Source of the DNA: a virus
Strand: one strand, 5' to 3'
Virus genome (UHGV): UHGV-0141996
DNA length: 13,855 nt
Shown: positions 965 to 13,829 of the stretch, one piece after another
How positions within the stretch are numbered: position 1 is the stretch's first letter
Layout: every line of letters begins with the position of its first letter
The notes under the pieces: model-generated
Told to the model about the DNA's origin: nothing
Database searches by the model: none
What the model saw: the letters and a program-made list of their open reading frames with translations, nothing else
Translations under genes and position numbers: made by a program

Positions 965-1802
965 GGATCGTTCCTTTTGATTTTATCTTACTGTTTACAT
1001 AACCAACCAAGCCGGGCACAATCGAGCCGTTAGAGACGATAGTGAGGCTAACAATCGTTATGAGTTTGCAGACTCATGGCGGTCATGCTTCATAGACCGG
1101 ATTCACGCAGGTGACTCCGGTTTTTTTATGCCCATCATTTATACATGGGCACAACATATAGGGTGTGTTAATAAGATTACCCCCTACATGTTCAGCATTC
1201 TAGTTAGGATTCTTTGCAGTACAAGGGTTGATTTTGAGGTTAAATTGAGGTTGTCAAAGGGAAATTTCGACCAACCCTACGTGCCGTAAGGCTTAGGCTG
1301 TATGTCAATGTTTCAGAAAAAAAAATGAAAATTTGATCGAGTGCTGATTTCTTTAGCACGAGAACATGAGATCGAACCAAAATATTGCAAAGTTTTGAAC
1401 AAAACTTGAACTGCCTCGTGTCTCCATAGCCAAGACGAATGCAGTTTAAATAAGCTAAGTCAGCTCTCAAAAGTCCTTTATGACCCGAACCAAAAATTGT
1501 ACCTCTTAAACCCCACCGCAAGCGGCTCTCCGGGGTTTGTGCGCATGGAGTAATGCGGTTGTACTGGGTATGTGCGCACAACCCTCTACAAGCCGCATTC
1601 TACCGTTAGCCTATAGCTGAATCCCCGGCTTGAAAAATTGCACGCTTATGGTTGCCCCTCCCTCAACTCTATAGCTCGCCCGCGCCCCCGTGCGCATGTG
1701 CGTGCCCGCGCGTCAGGGGTCGCTGAGAAAACCCTAAGATTTTGCTCATCCGAGGCAACCGTTGCAGGCGCGTGTTGCCGAGGGCACACTGCCAGTGTTT
1801 GA

Positions 1803-1908
1803 TGGTGTCATCAATCGTTCGATTCTTGCTACCTTCCTGAGTGATTACTATCTGGTGTCATCAATTTAGGGTTTGACTAAATGCTACCACCAATGCAATG
1901 ATGCTACC
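1803..1908 (+). promoter_or_regulatory. Repeat-bearing leader/promoter region upstream of the serine recombinase gene
   Basis: Exact 13-bp direct repeat TGGTGTCATCAAT at 1803-1815 and 1853-1865 (50 bp centre-to-centre). ATGCTACC at 1881-1888 and 1901-1908, plus TTGCTACC at 1826-1833. TTGACT -35-like hexamer at 1873-1878. SD GGAGAGGTG precedes the ATG at 1940. Confidence 0.35.
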
Positions 1909-1939
1909 GTTTTGTGATACCAGACGGGAGAGGTGAAGC

Positions 1940-2515
1940 ATGAGGACTTTTATCTACTGCCGCGTTTCAACACGCGAGCAGGATACGCAGAATCAGGTGC
2001 TGGCTATTGAGCGTGCCGGGTACACGGTGCCTGAGAGCAGGGTAATCAGCGAGGACATTTCCGGCAGCGTTCAGGCTATGCAGCGCCCTAAGTTTCGGGC
2101 GATGGTTGAGCATAAGCTGGAAGCGGGAGATCAGCTTGTCGTGCTGAAACTGGACAGGCTGGGGCGCGACAACATCGACGTGCAACAGACCATCGACATG
2201 CTGTTAGAACGTGGCGTGAAGGTGGTGTCTCTTGACCTGCCAGCGCGTGATCTGACTTCATCTGAGGGCAAGCTAATCCGCCAGATGTTTGGAGCTTTTG
2301 CTGAGTTCGAGCGAAACCGTATCCGTGAGAGGACGCTGGACGGGCTGGAGAAGGCGAAAGCCAATGGCGTTAAGCTGGGACGCAAGGAAGCCACCGACAC
2401 CACTGAAAAGGTGCTGGAGTTGCGGAGTGAGGGGCTGTCTCAATCGAAGGTAGCGAAGCGTCTCGGCGTTAGCGTGAGCACCGTTAAACGCCACTGGAAC
2501 AAGGGCGAGGAGTGA
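1940..2515 (+). CDS. Small serine recombinase (resolvase/invertase family), 191 aa
   Basis: N-terminal YCRVSTREQ motif with the catalytic serine. LVVLKLDRLGRD and FAEFERNRIRERT blocks align by eye with gamma-delta/Tn3 resolvase. C-terminal HTH (SQSKVAKRLGVSVSTVKRH). Strong SD. Confidence 0.9.
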   Translation: MRTFIYCRVSTREQDTQNQVLAIERAGYTVPESRVISEDISGSVQAMQRPKFRAMVEHKLEAGDQLVVLKLDRLGRDNIDVQQTIDMLLERGVKVVSLDLPARDLTSSEGKLIRQMFGAFAEFERNRIRERTLDGLEKAKANGVKLGRKEATDTTEKVLELRSEGLSQSKVAKRLGVSVSTVKRHWNKGEE

Positions 2516-3215
2516 TGGCCTACAACCGAATGAGGTGCTATGACTGGCCGTTACTGGGCTGTGGGTGATGGATGACCTACAGCTTTTGTATTAATTTCAG
2601 AGGGTTATGTTATGCGTAATATCATAACGATATGATTTATAATGTATTTTCGTATTACTTGCGGCTCTCGATGTGAAGAGGTGGCGGGGCTTTAGCCGTG
2701 CCAGACGATGAACATCGAGATCAGATTGTGAATGTGATTCATCACTGAACAATTCGAGGGATGGGGCAGGGGAAGGGATCAAAGGCTGCGTTGTCCAATC
2801 ACTAAGCTAGATTTGAAGCTGGTCAACACGTTAGTAGTATCTTTAAAGTTGCATTTTAAATACATGTACAAGAAAGGGTTCTTCCCTTACATCCCTTCTC
2901 CTAAATGTAGTTACGAGTGCTTCGCTCTCTTCACTTGCTGCGCTTCTCGCTATGCTCCAGCCCGCTCCATCGCCTTTGGCTCATTCCCGGACTTCGCCCG
3001 CTGTGATGCTCGGCCACTCTACGCAACCGTGCTTGCCGTGGCAGGCAACGCGGCGGGGATGTGTAGTGGAACGGTACTCTGTATCGGTATGATTACTGTA
3101 TTCAATCACATACTGGTATCAGTAGGTATCCTTCAAAACATCTTCATTCATTTCTGTATCGTTCAATCATCTTTCTTGTTCGTTTCCTTTCAGGTCTTAG
3201 CCGTTGGTCATTGGT

Positions 3216-3330
3216 CTTACTGCCTGCTGTGCTACTGCCAGCTATGGCACGCCGTCACGGTCTACTGTCTGTTACCTGTCCTACTGCCTTCACTGTCTGC
3301 CGTCTGTCAGTCCTACGGTCTGCCATCCGT
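3216..3330 (+). repeat. Iteron-like short repeat cluster in a pyrimidine-skewed ORF-poor region
   Basis: YTACTGYC-type motifs at 3216-3224 (CTTACTGCC), 3231-3239 (GCTACTGCC), 3261-3271 (TCTACTGTCTG) and 3281-3288 (CTACTGCC). CTGTCTG-type motifs at 3293-3308. Tandem CATCCGT CATCCGT at about 3324-3337. The plus strand is strongly C/T-rich. Confidence 0.4.
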
Positions 3331-3778
3331 CATCCGTTCGGCGCTCGCTTGTTTCGGCTGCGCCGCGCTCGCTCTGCGTATCTAGCGATACTATATCACT
3401 ATAGACACTTTCATAATTATATAATGATTACAGTAACTTATGTTTTCTGTTTTAAAAGCTACTAATAAGGAGATATAGAGCATTACTTACCCGCTTTTGA
3501 CCGACAAAAATCGCGTTGTTAAGTATTGCCAGCCCAGGCTCAATAAGGCTTAGCGAGGTGGTGGCTAAAAAATGAGCTAATGAAGGTATCTACTAAGGAG
3601 AAAGAATAACTCCCGAAGCGCGACAAACTCTCCGATTTTGAAAGTGACTATTAAGGCAGATAAAGACACTGACACTGTTGCTGACATGAAAACTTCTAAA
3701 AGGGCAGAGAGTCTGCCGAACCCGTACCGCTGACCCAACCTGAGCTAATACCTACCCCTATTTTCTGGAGATTTCACC

Positions 3779-5623
3779 ATGCCAACAAACCTACGCCGCC
3801 TGCTTGCGCAGGCTGCCGACGCTGACCCGCTCAATACTGCGGACGCAGATGTACAGCAAATGATCGCTGACGGGATTGTTATTCGACGTTCCAAGATATG
3901 CCCTGTAAAGCGTAAACCCGTTAAGGCGGCATACAACACAAAGACCGAAGAGTTTTATTACAATGCAGATGGCTCCGCGATGACCTTGCGGGAGTGGCGA
4001 ACGCTGCACGGTGTTCAACCGAAGAAACAAAAACAGCGCTCTGACACTGGGTTGCGGCAAGTCATCCAGCCCGGCGACGCGATTCACTGCCGACGCGCTG
4101 AGATTGAGCAATGGCTTAATAAGAAGCCCGCTCGTTATGTTGACCCGCTGCCGCCAGATTTTCCCGGTGTTCGCGTAGACGATGCCGCATTGAAACCGCG
4201 CGAGCACGCCGTGCCGGAAGCGACAACCGGACAGAATGCTTTTCTCAAAGCCTGCCGCGAGTTCCTGATTTGCGATGAGAAGACCATGCGCCGTATCAGT
4301 CGGGGCATGAACCAAATGGAAGCTATGCGCAACGCAGATTTCAAACGCTACGGAGACTCAGGGGAGTTTCGTCAATTGTGGTGTGGAGAGTCGAAGCCTA
4401 CCGAAGATAGATTTAATAGTTCTAATCATCATTGTGACCCGAACGGCTTGGCTGCTTCGCCGTCTGTGCCGCCACTGAATACTGCACCGTATGAGTTCCG
4501 CCCGCTGGCTCGCTGTGACCGAAACGCACGCGTTAGCCTGCTGCCACCTGATGGGCTGGAGTGGAGGCCGGGGCAGTTGTCTGTTGCTGATGCGATCTTT
4601 TCCCGTGGCAGTGATGTGCTTGCCGTACTGCCGACCGGGTATGGCAAAAGCGCCGCCTTCACTTATCCATTGATTTATGAGTCCCGCGCTGGCATTGGCC
4701 TGTCTGTAATCGTGGTTCCTACTAATACCCTTAAGCGTCAGATTCTCCGCCAGTTGCGGGAGGCTGGCATTCACGCTGTGGCCTTTGGCGATAAGCTACC
4801 GAGGCACCGCAACGCACAACAACTGGCGGGACTAGCAGCCGGGGCGTTCCGGGTTGCTGTTGTTTCGCCTGAACATCTGGTTCCGTCGAGTCAGGTTCTC
4901 GCGGCGCTGATGGCTTATGGCGTTGATCGTTTTATTATCGATGAGGCACACACGGTCAAAGACTGGGATTTCCGCCCAGCTTACGACGCAATGCAGCACA
5001 CACTACAGAATGCTTTTCCCTCGGCTCAGCGCTGCGTGTTTACGGCTACTCTACTACGTGAAAATGAGAGCGGTTTAATGGAGGCGCTGGGATGCCGTGG
5101 CGATTACGTTACATTCCGTGCTGATGTTGCTCGCGAGAATATCCAGTTGATTCCGGTCAGGCAGTGCCGCCAGCGATACCGCGCGGCTGTTGGTCTGGTC
5201 GAGGCTCTGCCAGAGGAAGAGAAGACGCTCATTCTAGTCAATGACCTTAAGACGTTGCGGGCGTACCTGAAACTCTTCGGCGACCGGGCGCGCCCATATC
5301 ACTCGAAGACGATGCACCTGAGCAACGAGGAACGCCACGCAAACGCTGAGTGGTTTGCCTCTGCGCCGGGCGCGATTCTGATTGCTACTAAAGCCTTCGG
5401 GCTGGGTGCTGATGTTCCTGATATCCGTAACGTTGTCGTGACATACGTTCCCGATGACTTGCCTGATCTCGTTCAGATGATTGGACGAGCCGGGCGCGAT
5501 GGGGAACCTGCCCGCGCTTTTCTGCTGTGGTCATCGCTGGCGCTGGATGTTGCTCCTGATGAGCTTGCTTACTTCTACCGCCCTGAAAACTGTAACTGGC
5601 AGTACATCGCTAAATACCTCTGA
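3779..5623 (+). CDS. RecQ-like superfamily-2 DNA helicase, 614 aa, with a roughly 280-aa N-terminal region of unknown function
   Basis: Helicase motif I LPTGYGKSAAF, motif II DEAH box FIIDEAHTV followed by DWDFRPAY (RecQ-like), FTATL, and motif VI QMIGRAGRDG. SD GGAG 9 nt upstream of the ATG. The N-terminal region has no recognisable primase or helicase motif. Confidence 0.85.
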   Translation: MPTNLRRLLAQAADADPLNTADADVQQMIADGIVIRRSKICPVKRKPVKAAYNTKTEEFYYNADGSAMTLREWRTLHGVQPKKQKQRSDTGLRQVIQPGDAIHCRRAEIEQWLNKKPARYVDPLPPDFPGVRVDDAALKPREHAVPEATTGQNAFLKACREFLICDEKTMRRISRGMNQMEAMRNADFKRYGDSGEFRQLWCGESKPTEDRFNSSNHHCDPNGLAASPSVPPLNTAPYEFRPLARCDRNARVSLLPPDGLEWRPGQLSVADAIFSRGSDVLAVLPTGYGKSAAFTYPLIYESRAGIGLSVIVVPTNTLKRQILRQLREAGIHAVAFGDKLPRHRNAQQLAGLAAGAFRVAVVSPEHLVPSSQVLAALMAYGVDRFIIDEAHTVKDWDFRPAYDAMQHTLQNAFPSAQRCVFTATLLRENESGLMEALGCRGDYVTFRADVARENIQLIPVRQCRQRYRAAVGLVEALPEEEKTLILVNDLKTLRAYLKLFGDRARPYHSKTMHLSNEERHANAEWFASAPGAILIATKAFGLGADVPDIRNVVVTYVPDDLPDLVQMIGRAGRDGEPARAFLLWSSLALDVAPDELAYFYRPENCNWQYIAKYL

Positions 5624-5660
5624 GTCGAAAGGCTCTCCCTGATTCTCTGGAGTTAATCAT

Positions 5661-6098
5661 ATGCCTGTTACCGAACATGCGCAGCGTCGTGCTGCGCGTG
5701 CGGATGCGCTCATCACCGCACAACTAGCCTTTGCCCTGAATGGGTACAACTGGGATGAACTGGCCGAACCTCATCGCAAGACCCTTAATCGTGAGGCCAT
5801 CATTAGCGAGGTATCTACACCGCTGGAGCGATATTGCCTGCTGAATGATTGCGAGCCGTGGGAGTGTCTGGCCGCTGTACTGAACCGCATGAAAAGGCCG
5901 GATGGCTCGCGTCGCTGGAAAGCCGTCCGGTTGTCCGACCGGGTTTTCAATGGCCGGGTGCATCCAGTGCGCAAGACTCCTGATGAAGTTTACGCCGCCA
6001 TTGCCCGCCGCTTGTTCCTGCCGAAGCCTGTGCATCAAGAAGTGATACAGCACATCCGTGCGCTTGGCTTGTTACCAGTTGGAGATAACCACCAATGA
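5661..6098 (+). CDS. Hypothetical protein, 145 aa
   Basis: ORF with GGAG SD 8 nt upstream. Stop overlaps the next start (ATGA at 6095-6098). Codon usage and GC match the operon. Confidence 0.6.
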   Translation: MPVTEHAQRRAARADALITAQLAFALNGYNWDELAEPHRKTLNREAIISEVSTPLERYCLLNDCEPWECLAAVLNRMKRPDGSRRWKAVRLSDRVFNGRVHPVRKTPDEVYAAIARRLFLPKPVHQEVIQHIRALGLLPVGDNHQ

Positions 6099-6304
6099 CG
6101 AAATCTGAATTTGAAAATGAAACATGGCGAATGAAGGGCTTGCTTCTTGGGGCGCTGATTCGCCGCCTTGAGGAAGATAAGGCTGGCGAGTCGCGCATGG
6201 TCGCAGCGGAGTTATCCAGTGCGGTCAACTTCCTTAAGGCCAACGCCGTAGAAGCACCGGACACATCATTCAACAACGTGTTCCCGGAGGATGACGAACA
6301 ATGA
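6095..6304 (+). CDS. Hypothetical small protein, 69 aa
   Basis: ATGA overlap with the upstream gene, GGAGA SD, and its stop overlaps the next start (ATGA at 6301-6304). Confidence 0.55.
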   Translation: MTKSEFENETWRMKGLLLGALIRRLEEDKAGESRMVAAELSSAVNFLKANAVEAPDTSFNNVFPEDDEQ

Positions 6305-6477
6305 CCCCTGAACAATTCAGACAATGGTTCGCCACGCTGCCACCGAACTATCAGAGCGCCGCACGCACCATGTACGACAACGCCCGCAAGTCGGGCATAC
6401 ATACCGCGTCAAGCCTTGCGCTGATTCACACGTTGGTTACTGACCAGATCAAATTTGATTCGGAGTTTAATTTATGA
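6301..6477 (+). CDS. Hypothetical small protein, 58 aa (below the ORF-track length cutoff)
   Basis: Hand-translated: ATG at 6301, TGA at 6475-6477, giving MTPEQFRQWFATLPPNYQSAARTMYDNARKSGIHTASSLALIHTLVTDQIKFDSEFNL. GGAGG SD upstream. ATGA overlaps at both ends, continuing the translational-coupling pattern. Confidence 0.45.
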   Translation: MTPEQFRQWFATLPPNYQSAARTMYDNARKSGIHTASSLALIHTLVTDQIKFDSEFNL

Positions 6478-7037
6478 CTTTGAGTATTACCGATATCCAG
6501 CGCATTAACGCGCTGGCTCATAAGCACCTAAAGAACAATGAAGAGATTGCAGCGGAGACAGGTCATACCCTGACCGATATTGATGCTGTAATCCGTGGCG
6601 TCTATGTCGATGACTTGGCCGAACATTGGAAAGACGATGCTGATATTACTCTGGCGGAGTACAACGCCATCCGCAGCCGCTATAAGCCCGGCAAGTTGCA
6701 CCGCGATACAGAGTTTATGATTGCCCGCGATATGCTGATTCGCCCTGAGACTGTGCTGGCTATCGCCCATTCCCGCTTTAGCAACGTCCACACGCACCCA
6801 GTGCCGAAAGCCGTCAAAGCAAAGCCGGAGAAAGCGAAAGTAGTGCGCAAGTTAGTGCTTACTGATTTAGATGAAATCCACAAGTTAGAGCGCTTCGGTT
6901 GGCCTGCTGCGGAGATCGCCGGGAAGCTGGGCGTCCCTGTTGAAGTCGTCGCGCATGTGCAACGCTGTCTGAGAAATCGTTGGTCGTACCCGGATACTCT
7001 GGAGTTTGTTAACTCCAAATTCAGCGAGGCTGAATGA
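6474..7037 (+). CDS. Hypothetical protein with C-terminal HTH-like segment, 187 aa
   Basis: ORF with GGAG SD. C-terminal LTDLDEIHKLERFGWPAAEIAGKLGVPVEVVAHV resembles an HTH/sigma-region-4-like DNA-binding segment. ATGA overlap with the next gene. Confidence 0.6.
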   Translation: MTLSITDIQRINALAHKHLKNNEEIAAETGHTLTDIDAVIRGVYVDDLAEHWKDDADITLAEYNAIRSRYKPGKLHRDTEFMIARDMLIRPETVLAIAHSRFSNVHTHPVPKAVKAKPEKAKVVRKLVLTDLDEIHKLERFGWPAAEIAGKLGVPVEVVAHVQRCLRNRWSYPDTLEFVNSKFSEAE

Positions 7038-7270
7038 TGGCAGAGAACGAACCGCTGCACCCCGCCGTTAACCCTGATCTCTACGTGAACCTTGACGAAC
7101 AACGCGAAGGATACGCTCCGATTGAATCACGGGGTTGGGATGTGCTGACGCAGAACCTGACCGGGGAAGGGCGAATCGACCCCAGCCAAACACTTAACCA
7201 GAATCCGAAACAACGCCCGCGCGGCTCCGTTGGTGAGCGTCGTTGGCTTCGTAAACGTAGATTACTTTAA
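7034..7270 (+). CDS. Hypothetical small basic protein, 78 aa
   Basis: ATGATG tandem start (7034 or 7037) with GAGG upstream. Arg/Lys-rich C-terminus. Confidence 0.5.
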   Translation: MMAENEPLHPAVNPDLYVNLDEQREGYAPIESRGWDVLTQNLTGEGRIDPSQTLNQNPKQRPRGSVGERRWLRKRRLL

Positions 7271-7282
7271 CGAGGAATTACC

Positions 7283-7522
7283 ATGAGCAAAACTATCGTA
7301 TTGCTGCCGCCACGCAAGAATACAGACTGGGCTGCACAATTAAAGCTGATTTCTGAATCGCTTGAGGTGAGTCAGGCAGACCTCGCCCACGCCTATCAGG
7401 TTGATCGTCGGGATATGGGTAAAGCGTATCACGGTGTGCGCAAACTGCCGGAACGTTGTGTGCCTGTTCATATGCTGTTGTTAGCGCAGGTACACGACTT
7501 TAGAGCATTATCAGGAGAATAA
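7283..7522 (+). CDS. Hypothetical small protein, possible HTH DNA-binding, 79 aa
   Basis: GAGGAA SD 5 nt upstream of the ATG. Central segment SQADLAHAYQVDRRDMGKAYHGVRKLPE is compatible with a Cro/XRE-like HTH; weak. Confidence 0.5.
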   Translation: MSKTIVLLPPRKNTDWAAQLKLISESLEVSQADLAHAYQVDRRDMGKAYHGVRKLPERCVPVHMLLLAQVHDFRALSGE

Positions 7523-7525
7523 TTT

Positions 7526-8254
7526 ATGTCTGACCAGAATGTTAATCCGTACCTTTCCGGTGCTGATACTGCATCGCAGCAATCGCCGTACATGGCTGCA
7601 CCTGTTGGCGCTGACAATGGCGCATCTCGCTTTAGCTCTGCGCCTGCTGATGCTGATTTCCTCCGTACCCAGCCCGTTAATGGCAATGATGGCGGCCAAT
7701 GGAATAATGGCAACATTGCTAATCAGCAAGACCAGAACGCGGACAGCGCCGGGGCGCAGGTGGGCGATACTATCCCCCTGATGGATGGAACAGCTATTGA
7801 GTACACCGCCGAGCTACAAGGGTTAATGGGGCAGTTTCACCAGTCTGTCGAAAGCCAGCTAGGGCAGGGGACAGTTGACGCGATGTTGCAGTACGCTGGC
7901 ACACTCGACGCTGGGACGCAATCCACCCTTGAACGTATGGTTATGTCTGGCGACCCTGCGCAGATGCAGCGGGCGGTTCAGTACCTGCAAGAACGTATGG
8001 CTGCTGGTTCTGCTTCCGGGTACGTTCCTGCACAGGGAAACCCATACGGCCAGCCTGCCGCGCAACCTGTCGGAATGTCACATGCTGAGTTTATAGCAGC
8101 GTATGACCAGCTTTCGCAGTGGGCGCAGCAATCAGGGTATGGCCCCGGCCATCGCCAGTACGACGAACAATACCGTGCTCTGGTTGCGCAGCGCTCCGCT
8201 GGCAAACGTGCTGGTCGCTTACGCCCAACGGTGGAATGCGCCCTGCAAGACTGA
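7526..8254 (+). CDS. Gln/Ala/Gly-rich low-complexity protein, 242 aa; possible scaffolding protein
   Basis: Strong SD AGGAGA. Low-complexity Q/A/G/D-rich composition with predicted helical C-terminal half. Sits immediately upstream of the capsid-like gene region, as scaffold genes do in T7-like and P22-like head modules. The functional call is positional and compositional only. Confidence 0.4.
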   Translation: MSDQNVNPYLSGADTASQQSPYMAAPVGADNGASRFSSAPADADFLRTQPVNGNDGGQWNNGNIANQQDQNADSAGAQVGDTIPLMDGTAIEYTAELQGLMGQFHQSVESQLGQGTVDAMLQYAGTLDAGTQSTLERMVMSGDPAQMQRAVQYLQERMAAGSASGYVPAQGNPYGQPAAQPVGMSHAEFIAAYDQLSQWAQQSGYGPGHRQYDEQYRALVAQRSAGKRAGRLRPTVECALQD

Positions 8255-8317
8255 GTGCGCACCAACCCGGTACTACCACACCAATCTAAGCGCATGAGTC
8301 CCCGCAAGCCGCATTCT
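8255..8317 (+). repeat. Intergenic GC-rich motif block related to the 1539-1601 block
   Basis: GTGCGCACCAACCC (8255-8268), GCGCATGAGT (8290-8299) and CAAGCCGCATTCT (8305-8317) recur in the same orientation at 1539-1601: GTGCGCATGGAGT, GTGCGCACAACCC (1572-1584) and CAAGCCGCATTCT (1589-1601, exact 13-mer). Confidence 0.45.
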
Positions 8318-8360
8318 GCGCGGCATCTGAAAGCCTGTTTTTAATTAACCGAGGTTCGTA

Positions 8361-8774
8361 ATGAGTACCTGTAATTTCCATGCCGTGGTGCGTGTCGCTG
8401 ACGTGCGCCCGGATTTCGCCTTGCCGCTGGGTAGATGCGACCACATTTACCCTGAGCGTGTGCAGCACGTTTTCAATCCAGACGAAGCGGTTTATATCGT
8501 TGCCCGGTCTGCCACATCCGGCACCCGCACATCTGGCGTTAGCCGTGGGCTTTCCCCTGTGCTGCCGCCGAAGATGGCCGAGCGGATGCGCGAACGTAAA
8601 CGGCACGAGAAGAATCGAGCCAGACCCCGCAAGGTGATCACTGAGGCGATACGCGCTGACATTATCGATCGCTCTGCAAAAGGCCAGAAGAATCGTTACA
8701 TTGCAAGCAAGGTTGGCGTGTCTGAAACCTCTGTGCGGAAGGTGTTGAACATGGCGCGTATGAGTGCGCACTAA
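8361..8774 (+). CDS. HTH-domain protein, 137 aa; possible regulator or packaging-associated DNA-binding protein
   Basis: GAGGT SD. Basic Arg/Lys-rich middle (RMRERKRHEKNRARPRK) and C-terminal HTH-like segment (IIDRSAKGQKNRYIASKVGVSETSVRKVLN). Confidence 0.55.
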   Translation: MSTCNFHAVVRVADVRPDFALPLGRCDHIYPERVQHVFNPDEAVYIVARSATSGTRTSGVSRGLSPVLPPKMAERMRERKRHEKNRARPRKVITEAIRADIIDRSAKGQKNRYIASKVGVSETSVRKVLNMARMSAH

Positions 8775-8993
8775 TGCAAGGTAATACGTTCGCCTTACTT
8801 CACGCGCACTAACCCCTGAGAACCGCGCCAGCTCTGGCCTCAAAACGCCCATTTCGGGGCACCTCATCCCTCTTAATCGATACCGTTCTGAATCCTGCCT
8901 CGGCGGGAGGATTACGCACGCCCGCGCCATGACGATGGCCGGGCTTATCTCGTCAGTGAATCCGCTGGCACAACCTACGTAGGAGTTTTACAT

Positions 8994-9989
8994 ATGGCCG
9001 ATAACATTTACTCGCCTGACCAGTTCCGCCCACATTATGGCGGGGTGGAATCTGACAATGATATTCACATCGAGGCTTATGACCGGGATGTCCAGACCCG
9101 TTTAGAGTCCAAATCCGTATTTCTGGCCGAGGGGCTGTCTACATACAGGCCGCTGAAAGCCAGCAACCAATACCGCATTGATCGCCTGAGTGGTGATCTT
9201 GAGGTGAAGGGCAGAACCGCAGGGCAATCGCTGGAGCCTACCGCCGTTAAGTCGGACAAGTTGGTTATCTCTGTGGATACGCTGAGCTATATCCGCATCC
9301 CGATTGACTATCAGGATGACTGGACAGCTCCCACCTTTCGCGCAGAGCTGAGCCGCAATATCGGTACTGCTCACGCTAAATTCTACGACGAAGCGCACAC
9401 CATCCAGCTAATCAAAGCGACTGACTTCGTACCGCCGCCGACACTGCAACCAACGTTTAACCCGCTTACGGATAATGTTGTCTCGCTCGACCTGACAGCG
9501 GGGAGCGAAGAGGATGCAGCTAACGAACTGGTTCACGCTATCAAAGCTGCTGTTAATCGATTCCTGACTGAGAAAGATATTCCGGTGGCGGAGCTGGTAC
9601 TGCTTATCGACCCGGCTTGGTTCAGCATCCTGATGGAACATAAGAAGCTGATGAACGTCCGTTACAGCCGGGATAGTGGCAACGATTACGCATGGCGTCG
9701 TGTTGGCTATGTCGCTGGGGTGCGAGTTATCGAGCTGAATAGTTACCCGCAGGAAGCCATTACCGGGCATGAACTGGGCGCTGATTATGACGTTACCGCA
9801 GAGGAAGCGCTGACGAGGGCGACGCTGTTTAAACCTTCCTCGGTACTGTTGACGGTCGAAGCGCAGAGCGTCATCAATCGCCAGTGGGATGATGAAAGCG
9901 AAATGACGATGGTGATGGACTCATATCGCCTGTTCAACGTTGGGCTGCGTCGTCCTGACTGCGTTATCAATTTCCGACAAGCTGCATAA
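8994..9989 (+). CDS. Putative major capsid protein, 331 aa, T7 gp10-like by eye
   Basis: Strong SD AGGAG. Length and block pattern resemble T7 gp10 from memory: KLVISVDTL..IPIDYQDD...RAEL..NIG.AHA and a C-terminal VLLIDPAWFSIL ... GVRVIEL ... LF..S.V.L.V block. No protease gene adjacent, consistent with a scaffold-dependent capsid. Confidence 0.55.
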   Translation: MADNIYSPDQFRPHYGGVESDNDIHIEAYDRDVQTRLESKSVFLAEGLSTYRPLKASNQYRIDRLSGDLEVKGRTAGQSLEPTAVKSDKLVISVDTLSYIRIPIDYQDDWTAPTFRAELSRNIGTAHAKFYDEAHTIQLIKATDFVPPPTLQPTFNPLTDNVVSLDLTAGSEEDAANELVHAIKAAVNRFLTEKDIPVAELVLLIDPAWFSILMEHKKLMNVRYSRDSGNDYAWRRVGYVAGVRVIELNSYPQEAITGHELGADYDVTAEEALTRATLFKPSSVLLTVEAQSVINRQWDDESEMTMVMDSYRLFNVGLRRPDCVINFRQAA

Positions 9990-10005
9990 CTGGAGGGGCT
10001 GAGTC

Positions 10006-10515
10006 ATGGTTAATGATGCTTACGCCCCTGAGCTGTTGCGATCCCTTTTCCTGTATGACCCGGTGACAGGTCGCCTGCACCATAAAGCTAACCGACGCCG
10101 GGTTAAGGCTGGCTCCTATGCTGACTCCACCCAGCGAGCTGATGGCTATCGTCAAGTTGCCCTGCGACTTGATGGCAAGCAGTACCAGCTAAAAGCCCAT
10201 CGCGTGGCATGGATTCTTGCGCATGGCGCTATTCCTCACGGTAAGCAGATCGATCACATCAACGGTATCCGTGACGACAACCGCCTATGCAATCTGCGTT
10301 TGGTTACGCAGCGGGAAAACGACCAGAACCGACGCAAGGCAAGGGGATATAGCTGGAATAAAGGCAGTAGCAAATGGGAGGCTTACATACGCGTTGATGG
10401 TGTACTCCGTCACCTTGGCTTATTTACTACCGAAGCGGCGGCGCGTGCTGCCTATCTAAAAGCTAAAGCCAGATACCATCCCTCAACGCCAGCCGATTTG
10501 TTGCAGGCTGCCTAA
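10006..10515 (+). CDS. HNH endonuclease with C-terminal AP2 domain, 169 aa
   Basis: HNH motif HRVAWILAHGAIPHGKQIDHINGIRDDNRLCNLRLVTQRENDQN. AP2-like segment YSWNKGSSKWEAYIRVDGVLRHLGLFTTEAAARAAYLKAKARYH. SD GGAGGGG. Confidence 0.85.
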   Translation: MVNDAYAPELLRSLFLYDPVTGRLHHKANRRRVKAGSYADSTQRADGYRQVALRLDGKQYQLKAHRVAWILAHGAIPHGKQIDHINGIRDDNRLCNLRLVTQRENDQNRRKARGYSWNKGSSKWEAYIRVDGVLRHLGLFTTEAAARAAYLKAKARYHPSTPADLLQAA

Positions 10516-10533
10516 TCCTCGGAGGTTCCATAT

Positions 10534-10959
10534 ATGGCTGATGAAAAGCCGATTAGAGCGCTGGCAGATGATGACCCACGCCGCCAGCGGTACGCTGAAC
10601 TGATGGCGCAGGCTGGCCGCATGACTATTCCCCGACTGCATCCGGGCGATGCTAATAGTGTTATGAGCCAACTTGCGACGATGCTCGGCGCACCTGTCCC
10701 GATAGTCGGTGCTATGACTGAGCACGCCGCTGCATGGCGTGCCTGTATGCTGGAGCAAGGGCTTGGCGATCTTCTGGATGGCTTGAGTAAACAGGTGCTG
10801 ACCATCTTCTTTCTGCTCTGCTGGAGAGACAGCGCCTTGCGATTGGCGGGTAAGCAAAAGGAACGGCTTACAGCGGCCAGCGAGGGTTTGACCATTGAGC
10901 AATACCGGGCGATGCACCCGGCTTACAGAGAGAATAAAGAAGATGATAACCACGATTAA
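10534..10959 (+). CDS. Hypothetical protein, 141 aa, in the position often occupied by a small terminase subunit
   Basis: Strong SD GGAGG 8 nt upstream. Lies immediately downstream of the HNH gene. No recognisable motif; the small-terminase suggestion is positional inference only. Confidence 0.55.
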   Translation: MADEKPIRALADDDPRRQRYAELMAQAGRMTIPRLHPGDANSVMSQLATMLGAPVPIVGAMTEHAAAWRACMLEQGLGDLLDGLSKQVLTIFFLLCWRDSALRLAGKQKERLTAASEGLTIEQYRAMHPAYRENKEDDNHD

Positions 10960-11242
10960 ATTAAGGTGGCGGTACATCGAGCCGCCGCCAATGACTGGCG
11001 CACTCGCTGACCTGAAACAGTGGGTAATGGATACCGGAGAGCCTGAGCTGGAAGCTGAATTTCGTAAGCTGCTGGGGCTAATGCGCCGCAACGGTATCAG
11101 TGACGAACGCGTTAATGCGATGGCTGATGAGCTTTATGTTCTGGTTTGCCAACGCCAGTGCGAAGAATACGAAGCCTGCAAGCGGGCTGCGTCTGACAAT
11201 GGAGACTTTGAATCATGGTTACACGGACAGACCAACTACTAA
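10943..11242 (+). CDS. Hypothetical small protein, about 99 aa; start ambiguous (alternative upstream start at 10895)
   Basis: The ORF track starts at 10895 and overlaps the upstream gene by 65 bp. The in-frame ATG at 10943 (MITTIKLRW...) is preceded by AAAGAAG and gives a minimal overlap. Cys-containing segment CQRQCEEYEAC. Confidence 0.45.
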   Translation: MITTIKLRWRYIEPPPMTGALADLKQWVMDTGEPELEAEFRKLLGLMRRNGISDERVNAMADELYVLVCQRQCEEYEACKRAASDNGDFESWLHGQTNY

Positions 11243-11640
11243 GAAAAGCGATGCGGGACTATCTGGAACACCTCGGCAACATGCCGTTGGCTGAACGGAT
11301 TACAAATGCTGCTGTATTCGAAGATGTGTATCGCTTCCTGTTGAATGGTTCCGGTCGGCTGGAGTTGCGCCGCGCTGATGTGGCCGCTGTTCGTATCTTC
11401 CTGTGGAATTACCAATACCGACGCTGTGCGGTGACAGGTAAGCCGCTGCGCCTTACGTCTGCCGTGCTAGATCACTGCCACCGAACCGGGCGCGTGCGTG
11501 CTGTGGTGCATCGTTCTGCTAACGCTGCTGAGGGAGGCCGCTACGTTGGGCGGACGTGTGGTGTTAGCGTTGCGAACTTAAGGGCTATGGTTGGCAGCTA
11601 TCGCAAGCAATACACCGGTATTGGCGTGTTATATCCATAA
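11215..11640 (+). CDS. Endonuclease VII-like (HNH superfamily) protein, 141 aa
   Basis: Segment CAVTGKPLRLTSAVLDHCHRTGRVRAVVHRSANAAEG matches the Endonuclease_7 pattern (C..C-like ... DH.H.TG.VR ... N...G) with substitutions. GGAG 9 nt upstream. Last gene of the plus-strand operon. Confidence 0.55.
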   Translation: MVTRTDQLLRKAMRDYLEHLGNMPLAERITNAAVFEDVYRFLLNGSGRLELRRADVAAVRIFLWNYQYRRCAVTGKPLRLTSAVLDHCHRTGRVRAVVHRSANAAEGGRYVGRTCGVSVANLRAMVGSYRKQYTGIGVLYP

Positions 11641-11681: not shown

Positions 11682-12584
11682 TCAAACAGGAATGTTGTAG
11701 TAATGACAAATGGCATTAGTTAGTAGAGCTGGTGCAGCAGATGCTGCAATATTTAGCGTTCCCGCATATGCTTTACCAATCATATCACCAAGCCACCCTC
11801 CAACTTTTCCTCCTAAATTATCCATAGTGGTGGGCACTGGAGATTCTTGTATAGCTTGCTGAAGCGTTGTTATGTCTGCTTCTGAAACTCCCCATTCTTT
11901 AAGTTGTTTCTCCAGCGAATTAAAATCTCCTGCTATAATCGTGTTATTCTGGTTAATGTCTCCAGTATTCCCAGCACCAATACTGCCTGCATTATTAACT
12001 GCGCCATTAAAAATATTAGTATTGTTAACCGTCATAGGAGCGACCTCTTTTTCTGCCTGAGTGAACAATAACCCTTCACCCATAATCCCCTGTTTTTCTA
12101 ATTCAAGTGACCAATCAAGAATCTTGTTTCTTACAGTTGTGACTATGTGAGCAAATTTACCAGAACTAAAGAACCAGCATATTTCAGGTCTTGAATGTTG
12201 ATCGTGATATAACATTTCAGCCATTTCTAGTGGGATAGGGAGCCTTATATTTCCTTTTGTGCCCTCTGCTCGTATCATTGATGCTATAGATTCAGTGAGT
12301 GTATAAGTAGTAAACTTACGCATAATCTTTGCGCTTATGTTACCAAGATCAACTGGAATCCAGCCGTTGAAAGGGTTATAGGCTTTTAACTGACCGTGCC
12401 CAGTTCTATATTCTGGGGCTGATGCAATTGTAGGGTAGCCATTCAATTCGTGCTCAATCCAGCCTGTAACATCTTCCAGGCCAAGCTTGACGGCTATTAC
12501 TTTAGCTTTCATTAAAAGAGCGATAATATCAGTGTTAGGATCGCTTGCAAGAGCTTGAAGTTCAAGAACTGGTGAGTTAGCCAT
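11682..12584 (-). CDS. AT-rich cargo gene, 300 aa; putative AbiTii-like abortive-infection protein with Asn/Gly-rich C-terminal half
   Basis: Intact ORF with strong SD (TAAGGA 6 nt upstream on the minus strand). N-terminus (LELQALASD..IIALLMKAKVIAVKLGLEDVTGWIEHELNGY) resembles AbiTii-type domains as I recall them; unverified. C-terminal half is N/G-rich low complexity ending in a hydrophobic segment. Located between the integrase and the phage-like operon; markedly AT-rich. Confidence 0.45.
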   Translation of the reverse strand: MANSPVLELQALASDPNTDIIALLMKAKVIAVKLGLEDVTGWIEHELNGYPTIASAPEYRTGHGQLKAYNPFNGWIPVDLGNISAKIMRKFTTYTLTESIASMIRAEGTKGNIRLPIPLEMAEMLYHDQHSRPEICWFFSSGKFAHIVTTVRNKILDWSLELEKQGIMGEGLLFTQAEKEVAPMTVNNTNIFNGAVNNAGSIGAGNTGDINQNNTIIAGDFNSLEKQLKEWGVSEADITTLQQAIQESPVPTTMDNLGGKVGGWLGDMIGKAYAGTLNIAASAAPALLTNAICHYYNIPV

Positions 12585-12671: not shown

Positions 12672-13829
12672 TTATTTGCTTATTTCATCATTTGTGATTT
12701 GCTCGACATACTTCCTCGTCTCTATAGGAGAAGCTGCATTTTTCGAGTAAGTTTTGAAGCTCTCTGTACTCCCGCGCTCATGACCGACGAGCAGGGCAAT
12801 ACGATCCTCTGGTACTTGAGCACGGTCGAGCTGTTGCACAAACGCATGGCGGAGTGAGTGAAACACTTTTCTCTCTGCGGCAGGTTCGCCAAGCGCTTTG
12901 CGCTTCGCCCGTGTGAACTGCTGGGTGTGCCACGTTGAACGCTTTCCGTCTGCCCGGTCTGTGATTGAGGCGTGATAGAACAGAAAACCGCTATGTGTGG
13001 TCTTGAGCAACGACTTCACGAGAGGGATTAGCTTGCTGTGTACTGGGACGATTCGTGCCGCGCTCTTGGTCTTCCCCTCGGTGATCTCAAAGCACAAAAC
13101 GCCCTCGATGGTTTTAATACTGCTCTCACGCAGCGTACATATTTCATTGATCCGCATACCGCTGTAAGCACCAATAGCCGTTACCGCCTTCATCTCGTCA
13201 TCAAGTAAGGTATAGATCTTTGCCAGCTCTCCCGGTGCGAAGACTTCATAGCTGACCTTGCTGCTTTTTGCTTCGAGCGCATGACCACGCCAAGGATTGT
13301 CCTGTGGTGCATCGTGATAGCGATTGCGTGCCAAATCCCAAATCTGTGCCAGTGCGCTTATATAGTTCTGGATGGTTTGCGGCGCTCGCTCAGTTTTGAG
13401 CTTATCTAACCAGCCTGTAACTATGGATCGATTAATATCCCGCAACTGAATATCTTTCTTTTTCAGGTGGGTTAACAGCACCTCTACGGCTTTGTTGGTC
13501 TTGGATAGCGTGGTTAGCTTTCTCTTCTCACTGTATTGGAGAAGATACAGATCGCGCATTTTAAGTAGGGAAGGGCAAGCCTGAACCGATGCACCAAATG
13601 ATGCGGGGGCTTCCTTAGCATACACACTGACACGGCGTAGCTCATCAATGATTTGATCTACGGATGAGCCGCCTTGCGGCTTAAGCAGATTCCGTAAGCG
13701 AGTCCATTCCAGAGCAATAGCATCGCGAAACAAACGCGCTTGCCGTATGTCTCGTGTCCCTGTGCTTTTCATAAAGTAGCGCTTCCCTTGGAACAGGTGG
13801 CGCATGTAGATGGGAATAGCTATCCGCAC
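12672..13829 (-). CDS. Tyrosine recombinase / phage-type integrase, up to 385 aa; start ambiguous (GTG at 13829, ATG at 13805 or 13772)
   Basis: Tyrosine-recombinase motifs: Arg in GMRINEICTLR, HSLRHAF (His-x-x-Arg), LLVGHERGSTESFKTYSK (His and catalytic Tyr). The ORF track begins with GTG. The internal ATG at 13772 is preceded by AAGGGAAG and would give 366 aa. Confidence 0.9.
   Translation of the reverse strand: MRIAIPIYMRHLFQGKRYFMKSTGTRDIRQARLFRDAIALEWTRLRNLLKPQGGSSVDQIIDELRRVSVYAKEAPASFGASVQACPSLLKMRDLYLLQYSEKRKLTTLSKTNKAVEVLLTHLKKKDIQLRDINRSIVTGWLDKLKTERAPQTIQNYISALAQIWDLARNRYHDAPQDNPWRGHALEAKSSKVSYEVFAPGELAKIYTLLDDEMKAVTAIGAYSGMRINEICTLRESSIKTIEGVLCFEITEGKTKSAARIVPVHSKLIPLVKSLLKTTHSGFLFYHASITDRADGKRSTWHTQQFTRAKRKALGEPAAERKVFHSLRHAFVQQLDRAQVPEDRIALLVGHERGSTESFKTYSKNAASPIETRKYVEQITNDEISK

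Follow-up and report, generated by a model that had tools for sequence, protein, structure and literature searches.

Three diverged copies of one palindromic intergenic element in a capsid-encoding island and their association with a small regulator-like gene

What purpose is served by two related GC-rich blocks that lie about 6.7 kb apart in the virus genome UHGV-0141996? The stretch analyzed here in full—13,855 nucleotides (nt), referred to as the window throughout—encodes both a serine recombinase and a 137-amino-acid (aa) protein with a C-terminal helix-turn-helix (HTH), and a first-pass annotation of the DNA had placed one block upstream of the recombinase gene (1539-1601) and the other between a scaffold-like gene and the HTH gene (8255-8317). 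The blocks were described there as a direct pair of candidate recombination sites or, failing that, as shared operators or promoters. Our analysis indicates that the two blocks and a third, previously overlooked one (termed A, B and C, respectively) are three diverged copies of a single dyad-symmetric element of 85-105 bp, and that B and C are inherited with the HTH gene and not with the recombinase gene.

Three copies of one dyad-symmetric element

The strings on which the earlier description relied are present where they had been placed, i.e., GTGCGCATGGAGT at 1539, GTGCGCACAACCC at 1572 and CAAGCCGCATTCT at 1589 in the first locus, and GTGCGCACCAACCC at 8255, GCGCATGAGT at 8290 and CAAGCCGCATTCT at 8305 in the second, with an exact 13-mer common to 1589 and 8305. 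The accompanying caution that a single 13-mer match could be due to chance was well placed, as the window holds seven exact repeated 13-mers. The geometry proposed for the pair, however, does not hold. The three motifs are not collinear, since the order of the first two is swapped between the loci—GCGCATG(G)AGT comes before GTGCGCAC..AACCC at the first locus and after it at the second. Direct orientation fails as well: a same-strand local alignment of the two loci recovers the 13-mer and nothing else, with a score of 26 that is reached by 2 of 1000 dinucleotide shuffles.

The homologous alignment is inverted. Positions 1522-1607 align with the reverse complement of 8312-8227 over 86 nt with a score of 43, compared with 15.9 ± 2.3 for the dinucleotide-shuffle null (0/1000 shuffles reach the observed score) and 16.9 ± 3.7 for a sliding-window background. 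This alignment contains 58 identical positions out of 86 (67%) and zero gaps, such that the box spacing of 33 bp is kept. The same alignment scan exposed the third copy, block C, in the gap between the HTH and capsid genes (8762-8839), which matches positions 1522-1557 of block A, again inverted, with 30/36 identical positions and a score of 42 (0/1000 shuffles). Block A is thereby read on the minus strand, and blocks B and C are read on the plus strand. The notion of two related blocks has survived in its relatedness, with the direct pair replaced by an inverted one and a further copy added to it. A 20-nt core, CACNAACCCCNGAGARCCGC (CAC-N-AACCCC-N-GAGA-R-CCGC), is shared exactly between 1522-1541 on the minus strand and 8807-8826 on the plus strand, with 0.01 such occurrences expected by chance, and the box GCGCACNAACCC, allowing for at most one mismatch, occurs in the window only within A, B and C.

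Imperfect palindromy within each block explains the same-strand matches: pairing in register involves 89% of the cells, against 21-57% when the partner is slid. The 13-mer illustrates the point: in B, CAAGCCGCATTCT is the outer arm on the 3' side, and in A it is the complement of the arm on the 5' side. Read along its own strand (plus for B and C, minus for A), the element runs from an outer arm, AGAATGCGGCTTG, through box 1, GTGCGCAC, and a 29-nt spacer (ACATACCCAGTAC...) to box 2, which carries the core GCGCAC-N-AACCCC-N-GAGA-R-CCGC and is followed by a short GC hairpin. Its two halves, 5' and 3', are imperfectly complementary, with the outer arms AGAATGCGGCTTG and CAAGCCGCATTCT and the inner GTGCGCAC boxes facing each other, and the box GTGCGCAC is itself palindromic. 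The individual parts are distributed as follows.

1502..1621, minus strand: block A, an optional module of ~110 bp at the right-hand border of the variable left arm; homologous core at 1522-1607
1589-1601: outer arm of A, AGAATGCGGCTTG, as the reverse complement
1572-1579: box 1 of A, GTGCGCAC
1533-1544, minus strand: box 2 of A, GCGCACAAACCC
1522-1541, minus strand: core motif of A, CACAAACCCCGGAGAGCCGC
1508-1540: stem-loop of A, CCCC...GGGGTTT
8227..8332, plus strand: block B, between the scaffold-like and HTH genes, with the 5' arm GGAATGCGCCCTG
8255-8262, plus strand: box 1 of B, GTGCGCAC
8290-8312, plus strand: degenerate box 2 and core of B, GCGCATGAGTCCCCGCAAGCCGC; canonical CACTAACCCCTGAGAACCGC in the lineage of locus L007
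8309-8323: hairpin of B, CCGC-ATTCTGC-GCGG
8762..8839, plus strand: block C, a partial copy between the HTH and capsid genes, without the 5' arm
8762-8771: box 1 of C, GAGTGCGCAC, overlapping the last codons and the stop of the HTH gene
8807-8826, plus strand: core motif of C, CACTAACCCCTGAGAACCGC
8827-8838: hairpin of C, GCCAGCTCTGGC

On the 3' side of the hairpin in B follow a weak stem, a T5 run (8338-8342) and the ribosome-binding site of the HTH gene. What the three copies conserve is sequence and not pairing, with the 20-nt core being common to them and the loops and hairpins differing. The 242-aa scaffold-like open reading frame (ORF) is 16 codons longer than in related elements (8205-8254) and overlaps block B in this window alone, because the TAA stop codon of the relatives reads TTA here.

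Inheritance of the blocks among related islands

The window represents most of a ~15-kb island that is located, in E. coli, at the 3' end of a tRNA-Leu gene (leuX), between ahr and hsdR, and bounded by a 31-bp direct repeat of the tRNA end (att repeats). No tRNA or tmRNA genes were detected within the window. The tRNA-Leu hotspot for defence islands in general has been described in one preprint. The main features of the island are listed below.

1 to ~1500: variable left cargo arm, here with a 304-aa gene on the minus strand
1940-2515: serine recombinase, 191 aa, with Resolvase and HTH_7 domains
3779-5623, rightward: DEAD-box helicase, followed by small ORFs
7526-8254, rightward: scaffold-like protein, 242 aa
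8361-8774, plus strand: 137-aa protein with a C-terminal HTH, between B and C
8994-9989, rightward: major capsid protein, followed by an HNH gene, two small ORFs and an Endo VII-like nuclease gene
11682-12584: second variable cargo slot
12672-13829, minus strand: tyrosine integrase

To place the blocks in an evolutionary context, about 30 related loci were compared, which came from E. coli and from single genomes of each species of Kluyvera, Enterobacter, Kosakonia and Trabulsiella; further related loci were contributed by Cronobacter and metagenome contigs with divergent HTH homologues, and by other metagenome contigs. A pattern scan of metagenomes returned 120 loci, 105 of which were chance matches and 15 real relatives, including one new configuration (L102). 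One human gut metagenome contig, OXVH01000768 (L041), is 100% identical to window positions 1424-8438 and may represent the sample from which the window came, or else a very near relative.

B and C were found to be exchanged together with the HTH gene among the relatives. The core of C is present in all 19 of the 19 loci that carry the HTH gene, and four loci (L008, L010, L011 and L012) have an unrelated 115-aa gene in the corresponding interval (between 8222 and 8993) and neither B nor C. Within the HTH-bearing group, the lineage of L007 and Cronobacter shows GTCCAC in place of GCGCAC in box 2 at both B and C, with a canonical core in B, and the predicted recognition helix of its HTH protein reads VSKSSVNTV, as opposed to VSETSVRKV in the window. 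The L007/Cronobacter protein is 56-61% identical to the 137-aa protein by BLASTP and ~80% identical over the aligned columns, and includes an N-terminal insertion of ~40 residues. In L102, the HTH gene is recombinant and encodes a different C-terminal domain, and block C has been replaced too; the locus still holds the core, CTGAGAACCGCGCCAGCTCCGGCCTCAG, in the opposite orientation.

Block A is an optional module, with the homology among relatives breaking at 1508 and at 1621-1624 and so bounding it. Besides the window, it is carried by L001, L003, L005, L006, L012, L041, L047 and L102. A total of 135 E. coli genomes also contain it, with decayed remnants (in ST648, for example) making up many of them, and strain KFu019 is a carrier of the element with A; the intact elements of E2348/69 (L002), L007, L009 and L025 have no A. 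The alignment of related elements, which had been put forward as a check on whether both blocks are conserved, gives a divided answer: the core of C is kept in all 19 loci with the HTH gene, and A is dispensable in many intact elements.

Could these blocks be the sites of the 191-aa serine recombinase? Several features recommend the idea, as the gene encodes a small recombinase of the resolvase/invertase type, lies 330 bp from A and has in its neighbourhood blocks that are inverted and contain palindromic boxes. With inverted copies, the expected outcome would be an inversion of the 6.6-kb segment, and not the deletion or resolution that the first-pass annotation had envisaged for directly repeated sites. 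Yet the distribution of A is uncoupled from that of the recombinase alleles both ways: three alleles sharing only 26-35% identity with the window's accompany A, and three loci with the window's own allele (L002, L009 and L011) have no A; B and C, for their part, are inherited along with the HTH gene. Each recombinase allele also has its own upstream repeats, represented in the window by an exact 13-mer direct repeat, TGGTGTCATCAAT, at 1803-1815 and 1853-1865. The TGGTGTCATCAAT and ATGCTACC repeats start exactly where the homology of the recombinase module starts; other recombinase alleles have different repeats in this position, and the repeats are likely to be the sites of the recombinase itself. 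Moreover, an identity of only 67% between A and B would be poor for partner crossover sites. Order, spacing and orientation are the same in 8/8 loci with both A and B, and neither deletion junctions joining the two loci nor inversion junctions were found with synthetic junction queries in 5426 complete E. coli genomes, a survey of low power as few genomes (about two in the deletion case) hold both flanks. On account of the orientation of the copies, their inheritance, the better candidate sites of the recombinase and the lack of any rearranged relative, the recombination-site interpretation fails in its deletion form and is largely refuted altogether; we consider it very improbable that the blocks serve the recombinase in any form.

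The optional nature of A raises a different possibility, namely that the copies are paralogous leftovers of module shuffling that share no present function, with A a relic carried along with the left-arm cassettes and its similarity to B and C reflecting past recombination. In agreement with such an origin, A sits exactly between the homology breakpoints 1508 and 1621, persists in the many E. coli genomes mentioned above, decayed remnants included, and looks mosaic, with one side resembling B and the other C. The second module type in the family can be read both ways. Loci with the 115-aa gene (PHROG 21723, unknown function) possess their own pair of related blocks of ~50-110 nt, situated ~200 nt upstream of the recombinase and upstream of the 115-aa gene, in direct orientation (9465-9576 versus 2789-2899 in L010, and likewise in L011 and L012). 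That this module type has a block pair of its own at these two places would suit a history of shuffling; on the other hand, a left block combined with a pre-capsid block is a design that recurs with unrelated sequence, which favours regulatory function over chance. A further two observations are at odds with mere leftovers, in that the 20-nt core is exact between A and C despite drift elsewhere to 67% identity, and the box spacing between A and B is kept with no insertion or deletion. We regard a purely relic status of the copies as unlikely.

Operator and RNA readings of the blocks

Given their dyad symmetry, their fixed internal spacing, the conservation of sequence and not of structure, the bracketing of the HTH gene by B and C and the change of helix and box together, the blocks are best accounted for as operators. 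We tentatively propose that A, B and C are shared operators of the 137-aa HTH protein, at odds somewhat below even. Their position within the island is in keeping with this proposal: rightward genes are tightly packed from 3779 to 11640 (~8 kb), and the only two sizeable gaps in this array are those occupied by B and C, at the junction of the replication and scaffold genes with the capsid, HNH and nuclease genes. According to this model, the 137-aa protein would bind A, B and C as its own sites; binding at B would set the expression of the regulator itself and binding at C that of the capsid operon. Block A, inverted at the border of the accessory arm, could place leftward transcription into the cargo arm, or the insulation of that arm, under the same control. 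Both the binding of the HTH protein to the blocks and its effect on transcription are steps that we infer from sequence and gene context.

The candidate binder was characterized further at the protein level. Pfam assigns it to generic HTH families only (HTH_23, E = 4e-4), and a weak match (E = 1.5e-3) links it to the PHROG annotated as 'late transcriptional activator'. The AlphaFold model is confident only at residues 95-136, which form a tri-helical HTH. A profile search of the PDB gave a best E value of ~0.9 (TetR HTHs), which is not significant, and Foldseek returned no match at E <= 0.001. The family is a small one, with only 12 clusters in 5.8 billion proteins. The designation 'Mor/C-like' should accordingly be taken as a lead and not as a membership.

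Several observations weigh against the operator proposal. Physical contiguity alone would lead one to expect B and C to be linked to the HTH gene. The helix and the box change together in the L007 lineage and in L102, but this covariation comes from only two or three lineages, involves physically linked features and has exceptions for A in L012 and L102—the former has A but not the HTH gene, and in the latter both A and B persist alongside another HTH domain. Block A is also lacking from many intact elements that encode the HTH protein (L002, L007, L009 and L025), and the core of B is degenerate in the window's own lineage. Consensus scans detected no sigma-70 promoter at B or C, and none with a constant spacing from the core; a weak sigma-70-like site is found at 1470-1443 on the minus strand, downstream of A. 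The suggestion in the first-pass annotation that the blocks might be repeated operators or promoters for an HTH protein is the one favoured by the evidence, short of proof.

Sigma-E, sigma-32 and sigma-54 promoters, DnaA boxes, IHF sites and attC-like sites were also considered by eye and dropped. The same applies to a palindrome of the T7 'hairpin end' type, as found beside a terminal repeat, which would explain A only and not B or C.

The most substantial competitor of the operator proposal is that the blocks act in RNA, as imperfect hairpins of the sense transcript (plus strand for B and C, minus strand for A) that would serve as terminators or attenuators, processing sites or stabilizers of 3' ends. 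In B, the CCGC...GCGG stem could compete with a short GGC..GCC stem and U5 run located just before the ribosome-binding site of the HTH gene; in A, the tail AAACCCC...GGGGTTT resembles a hairpin-plus-U terminator for leftward transcription from a phage-type promoter at 3399-3415 (minus strand). All three copies are intergenic and lie at gene ends, with B and C in the sense orientation, and long hairpins are predicted for them (-39 to -52 kcal/mol for 126-160 nt). Folding is nevertheless no better than that of shuffled sequences, with z scores of -1.2 to -1.9 for A and B (-1.2 for A on the minus strand and -1.8 for B on the plus strand) and +0.97 for C (plus).

Comparative data tell a similar story. 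On the strand given, G:U pairs account for 26 of 225 paired cells, which would be A.C on the other strand, the A arms of L003 and L047 differ by one T:A to C:G double change, and the stretch GAAAGCCTGTTTTTAAT is kept between lineages, all of which would suit a function in RNA. Against this, the RNAalifold consensus obtained by aligning 15 distinct variants of A and B jointly is weak (-12 kcal/mol, with a covariation term of -1.0), and compensatory changes are scarce, with both partners altered in 0 pairs of the tested helices and in one pair of the alifold consensus. The three blocks gave no signal in a scan for intrinsic terminators. Visual inspection shows a stem of 3-5 bp followed by the T5 run in B and the CCCC...GGGGTTT stem-loop in A. 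Rfam gave no match at the blocks at E <= 1 when the whole window was scanned. Finally, the copies share sequence and not structure, C has no 5' arm, and the core in L102 has the opposite orientation. Weighing both sides, a role in RNA appears possible and rather doubtful.

If the operator proposal holds, what had been taken for a pair of recombination sites would become a palindromic control element in three copies, associated with a small HTH regulator—a modest correction in itself, though one that would provide three defined sites and one candidate binder as a handle on how the island switches on its capsid genes.

A probable satellite setting and comparison with known systems

The surroundings of the blocks connect the island to a specific group of phages. 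Over 180 nt, window positions 3190-3441 share 98% identity with a non-coding region of Bonnellvirus phages (Autographiviridae, ~42 kb), which encode an RNA polymerase of their own, the matches being in phages of Escherichia, Kosakonia, Enterobacter, Pantoea and Cronobacter. The phage counterpart lies in a gene-free stretch of ~1.5 kb between the last late and the first early gene, and it is this stretch that holds the genome ends in T7-like phages. Genome ends are not annotated in the Bonnellvirus phage records, and the record and paper of phage Kc261 give no terminal-repeat coordinates. A phage promoter consensus, TATGAAAGTGTCTATAG, derived from three plus-strand intergenic sites in the phage, has one exact copy in the window, at 3399-3415 on the minus strand and within the phage match, and the phage carries the same minus-strand copy at the equivalent place. 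A second phage-like piece spans 1621-1702, with block A abutting it on the left; 42 nt at its core match the start of the gene-free phage stretch with 90% identity. Within it, CCCGGCTTGAAAAATTGCACGCTTATGGTTGCCCCTCCCTC (1624-1664) is kept in 12/12 aligned relatives with mosaic flanks and is 90% identical to positions 10158-10198 of phage altidsur, just after the last gene; it is a candidate packaging or end-processing signal. In addition, the capsid protein of the island is 56% identical to that of altidsur at the amino acid level.

We also asked whether the blocks themselves might be promoters or other DNA of a helper phage, and rejected this explanation: the blocks and their core are absent from altidsur and from INPHARED, and TATGAAAGTGTCTATAG occurs only at 3399-3415 (minus strand). 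Two matches in IMG/VR are both unrelated. The absence of the core from the helper-like phage and from phage collections marks it as the element's own signal.

The island has capsid and scaffold-like genes, phage-derived pieces and a phage promoter, an integrase gene and att repeats, and its relatives carry defence-type cargo; taken together, it has the appearance of a satellite, and we consider it probable that it exploits virulent T7-like phages of the genus Bonnellvirus. Neither the element nor any satellite of Bonnellvirus phages was found described in the paper library searched. The two cargo slots (1-1500 and 11682-12584) contain unrelated genes across relatives, comprising AbiTii, a TIR-domain gene, a methyltransferase with a restriction enzyme, and DUF3800; they resemble the defence hotspots of other satellites.

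The element has its own helicase and capsid genes, and the blocks might conceivably be sites for replication or packaging—either iteron-like sites for the DEAD-box helicase as an initiator, in the manner of P4 ori and crr, or sites of recognition by packaging proteins. In P4, ori and crr are repeat sites several kb apart, a layout that the repeated boxes recall, and A abuts the segment that mimics the terminal region of the helper phage. The boxes do not covary with the helicase, however: L010 has a helicase 92% identical to that of the window and no boxes, and L007 has one that is 70% identical and does have them. No AT-rich stretch accompanies the boxes, of which each site has only two, many intact elements do without A, and the sequences shared with the helper elsewhere (1621-1702 and 3190-3441) are likelier packaging signals. 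A replication or packaging role for the blocks hence seems improbable.

Combining the operator proposal with the satellite setting yields a more speculative picture, in which the palindromes would be the switch points of a transcription programme in a so far undescribed family of satellites parasitizing virulent T7-like (Bonnellvirus) phages. The helper RNA polymerase would fire leftward from the stolen promoter at 3399-3415, across the copy of the phage terminal region, and might be halted or paused at block A, which abuts the phage-derived copy; B and C, along with the HTH protein, would gate the passage from the replication genes into the scaffold-capsid genes of the satellite. We put this forward as a long shot, the full regulatory scheme being much less certain than the identity of the island as a satellite. 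The setting matters more than the correction of the sites: an unusual probable satellite with ~250 bp copied from a phage, a promoter and two cargo slots. If the island is indeed a satellite of a virulent T7-like phage, the regulatory sites would offer a first step to testing how it senses and exploits its helper.

Further features of the island may be mentioned for completeness. Some 1.2 kb between the recombinase and helicase genes contain no credible gene and are probably non-coding, the ORF at 2813-3385 (190 aa) being frameshift-split in relatives and unannotated in RefSeq; part of this gap is a phage-like repeat region rich in CTGTC/CTACTGCC. Two strong Shine-Dalgarno-like strings, TAATAAGGAGATATAGA and CTACTAAGGAGAAAGAATAA (3455-3480 and 3588-3610), lie in an AT-rich stretch upstream of the helicase gene and have no start codon at the usual distance. 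In the left arm, ~170 nt of non-coding DNA (1184-1357) are 78-84% identical to unannotated stretches of Klebsiella and Leclercia plasmids. The 5' leader of the capsid gene contains a hairpin, GAATCCTGCC-TCGG-CGGGAGGATT (8890-8913), with a 10-bp stem and one mismatch, which is kept in all HTH-type lineages, L007 and L102 included, in otherwise variable DNA.

How do the blocks compare with known site families? The res sites of Tn3 and gamma-delta resolvase and the hix and gix sites of Hin and Gin share with them short palindromes near a gene of the resolvase family (191 aa here) and, for the invertases, inverted copies. The blocks differ from these sites in that they are not co-inherited with the recombinase, show no rearranged variants and have low identity between partners, and there are three copies here, two of them 0.5 kb apart around another gene. 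P4, a satellite with a helicase of its own, likewise has related repeat clusters several kb apart in ori and crr. These comprise many iterons, against two boxes per cluster here, where one member is dispensable and no link with the helicase allele exists. Intrinsic terminators, the lambda nut sites (boxA plus boxB hairpin), REP/BIME elements and T7 RNase III sites are, like the blocks, intergenic and located within or between operons, with a conserved box followed by a hairpin and copies in opposite orientation on divergently read DNA; unlike them, the blocks have no significant thermodynamic signal, covariation or Rfam family, and their hairpins differ among copies.

The last comparison is with late-gene activators of phages and satellites and their operators, namely Mor/C of phage Mu, Ogr of P2 and Delta of P4. 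The 137-aa protein departs from Mor/C and Ogr in having no significant sequence or fold match, the weak PHROG match aside, and the sites here are far longer (85-105 bp with two box pairs), are not accompanied by a promoter at a fixed distance and include one optional site 6.6 kb off at the cargo border. What the island has in common with these systems is a small protein with a C-terminal DNA-binding domain, encoded just before the morphogenesis genes, and dyad-symmetric sites that are repeated upstream of several transcription units, with one of them facing the opposite way.

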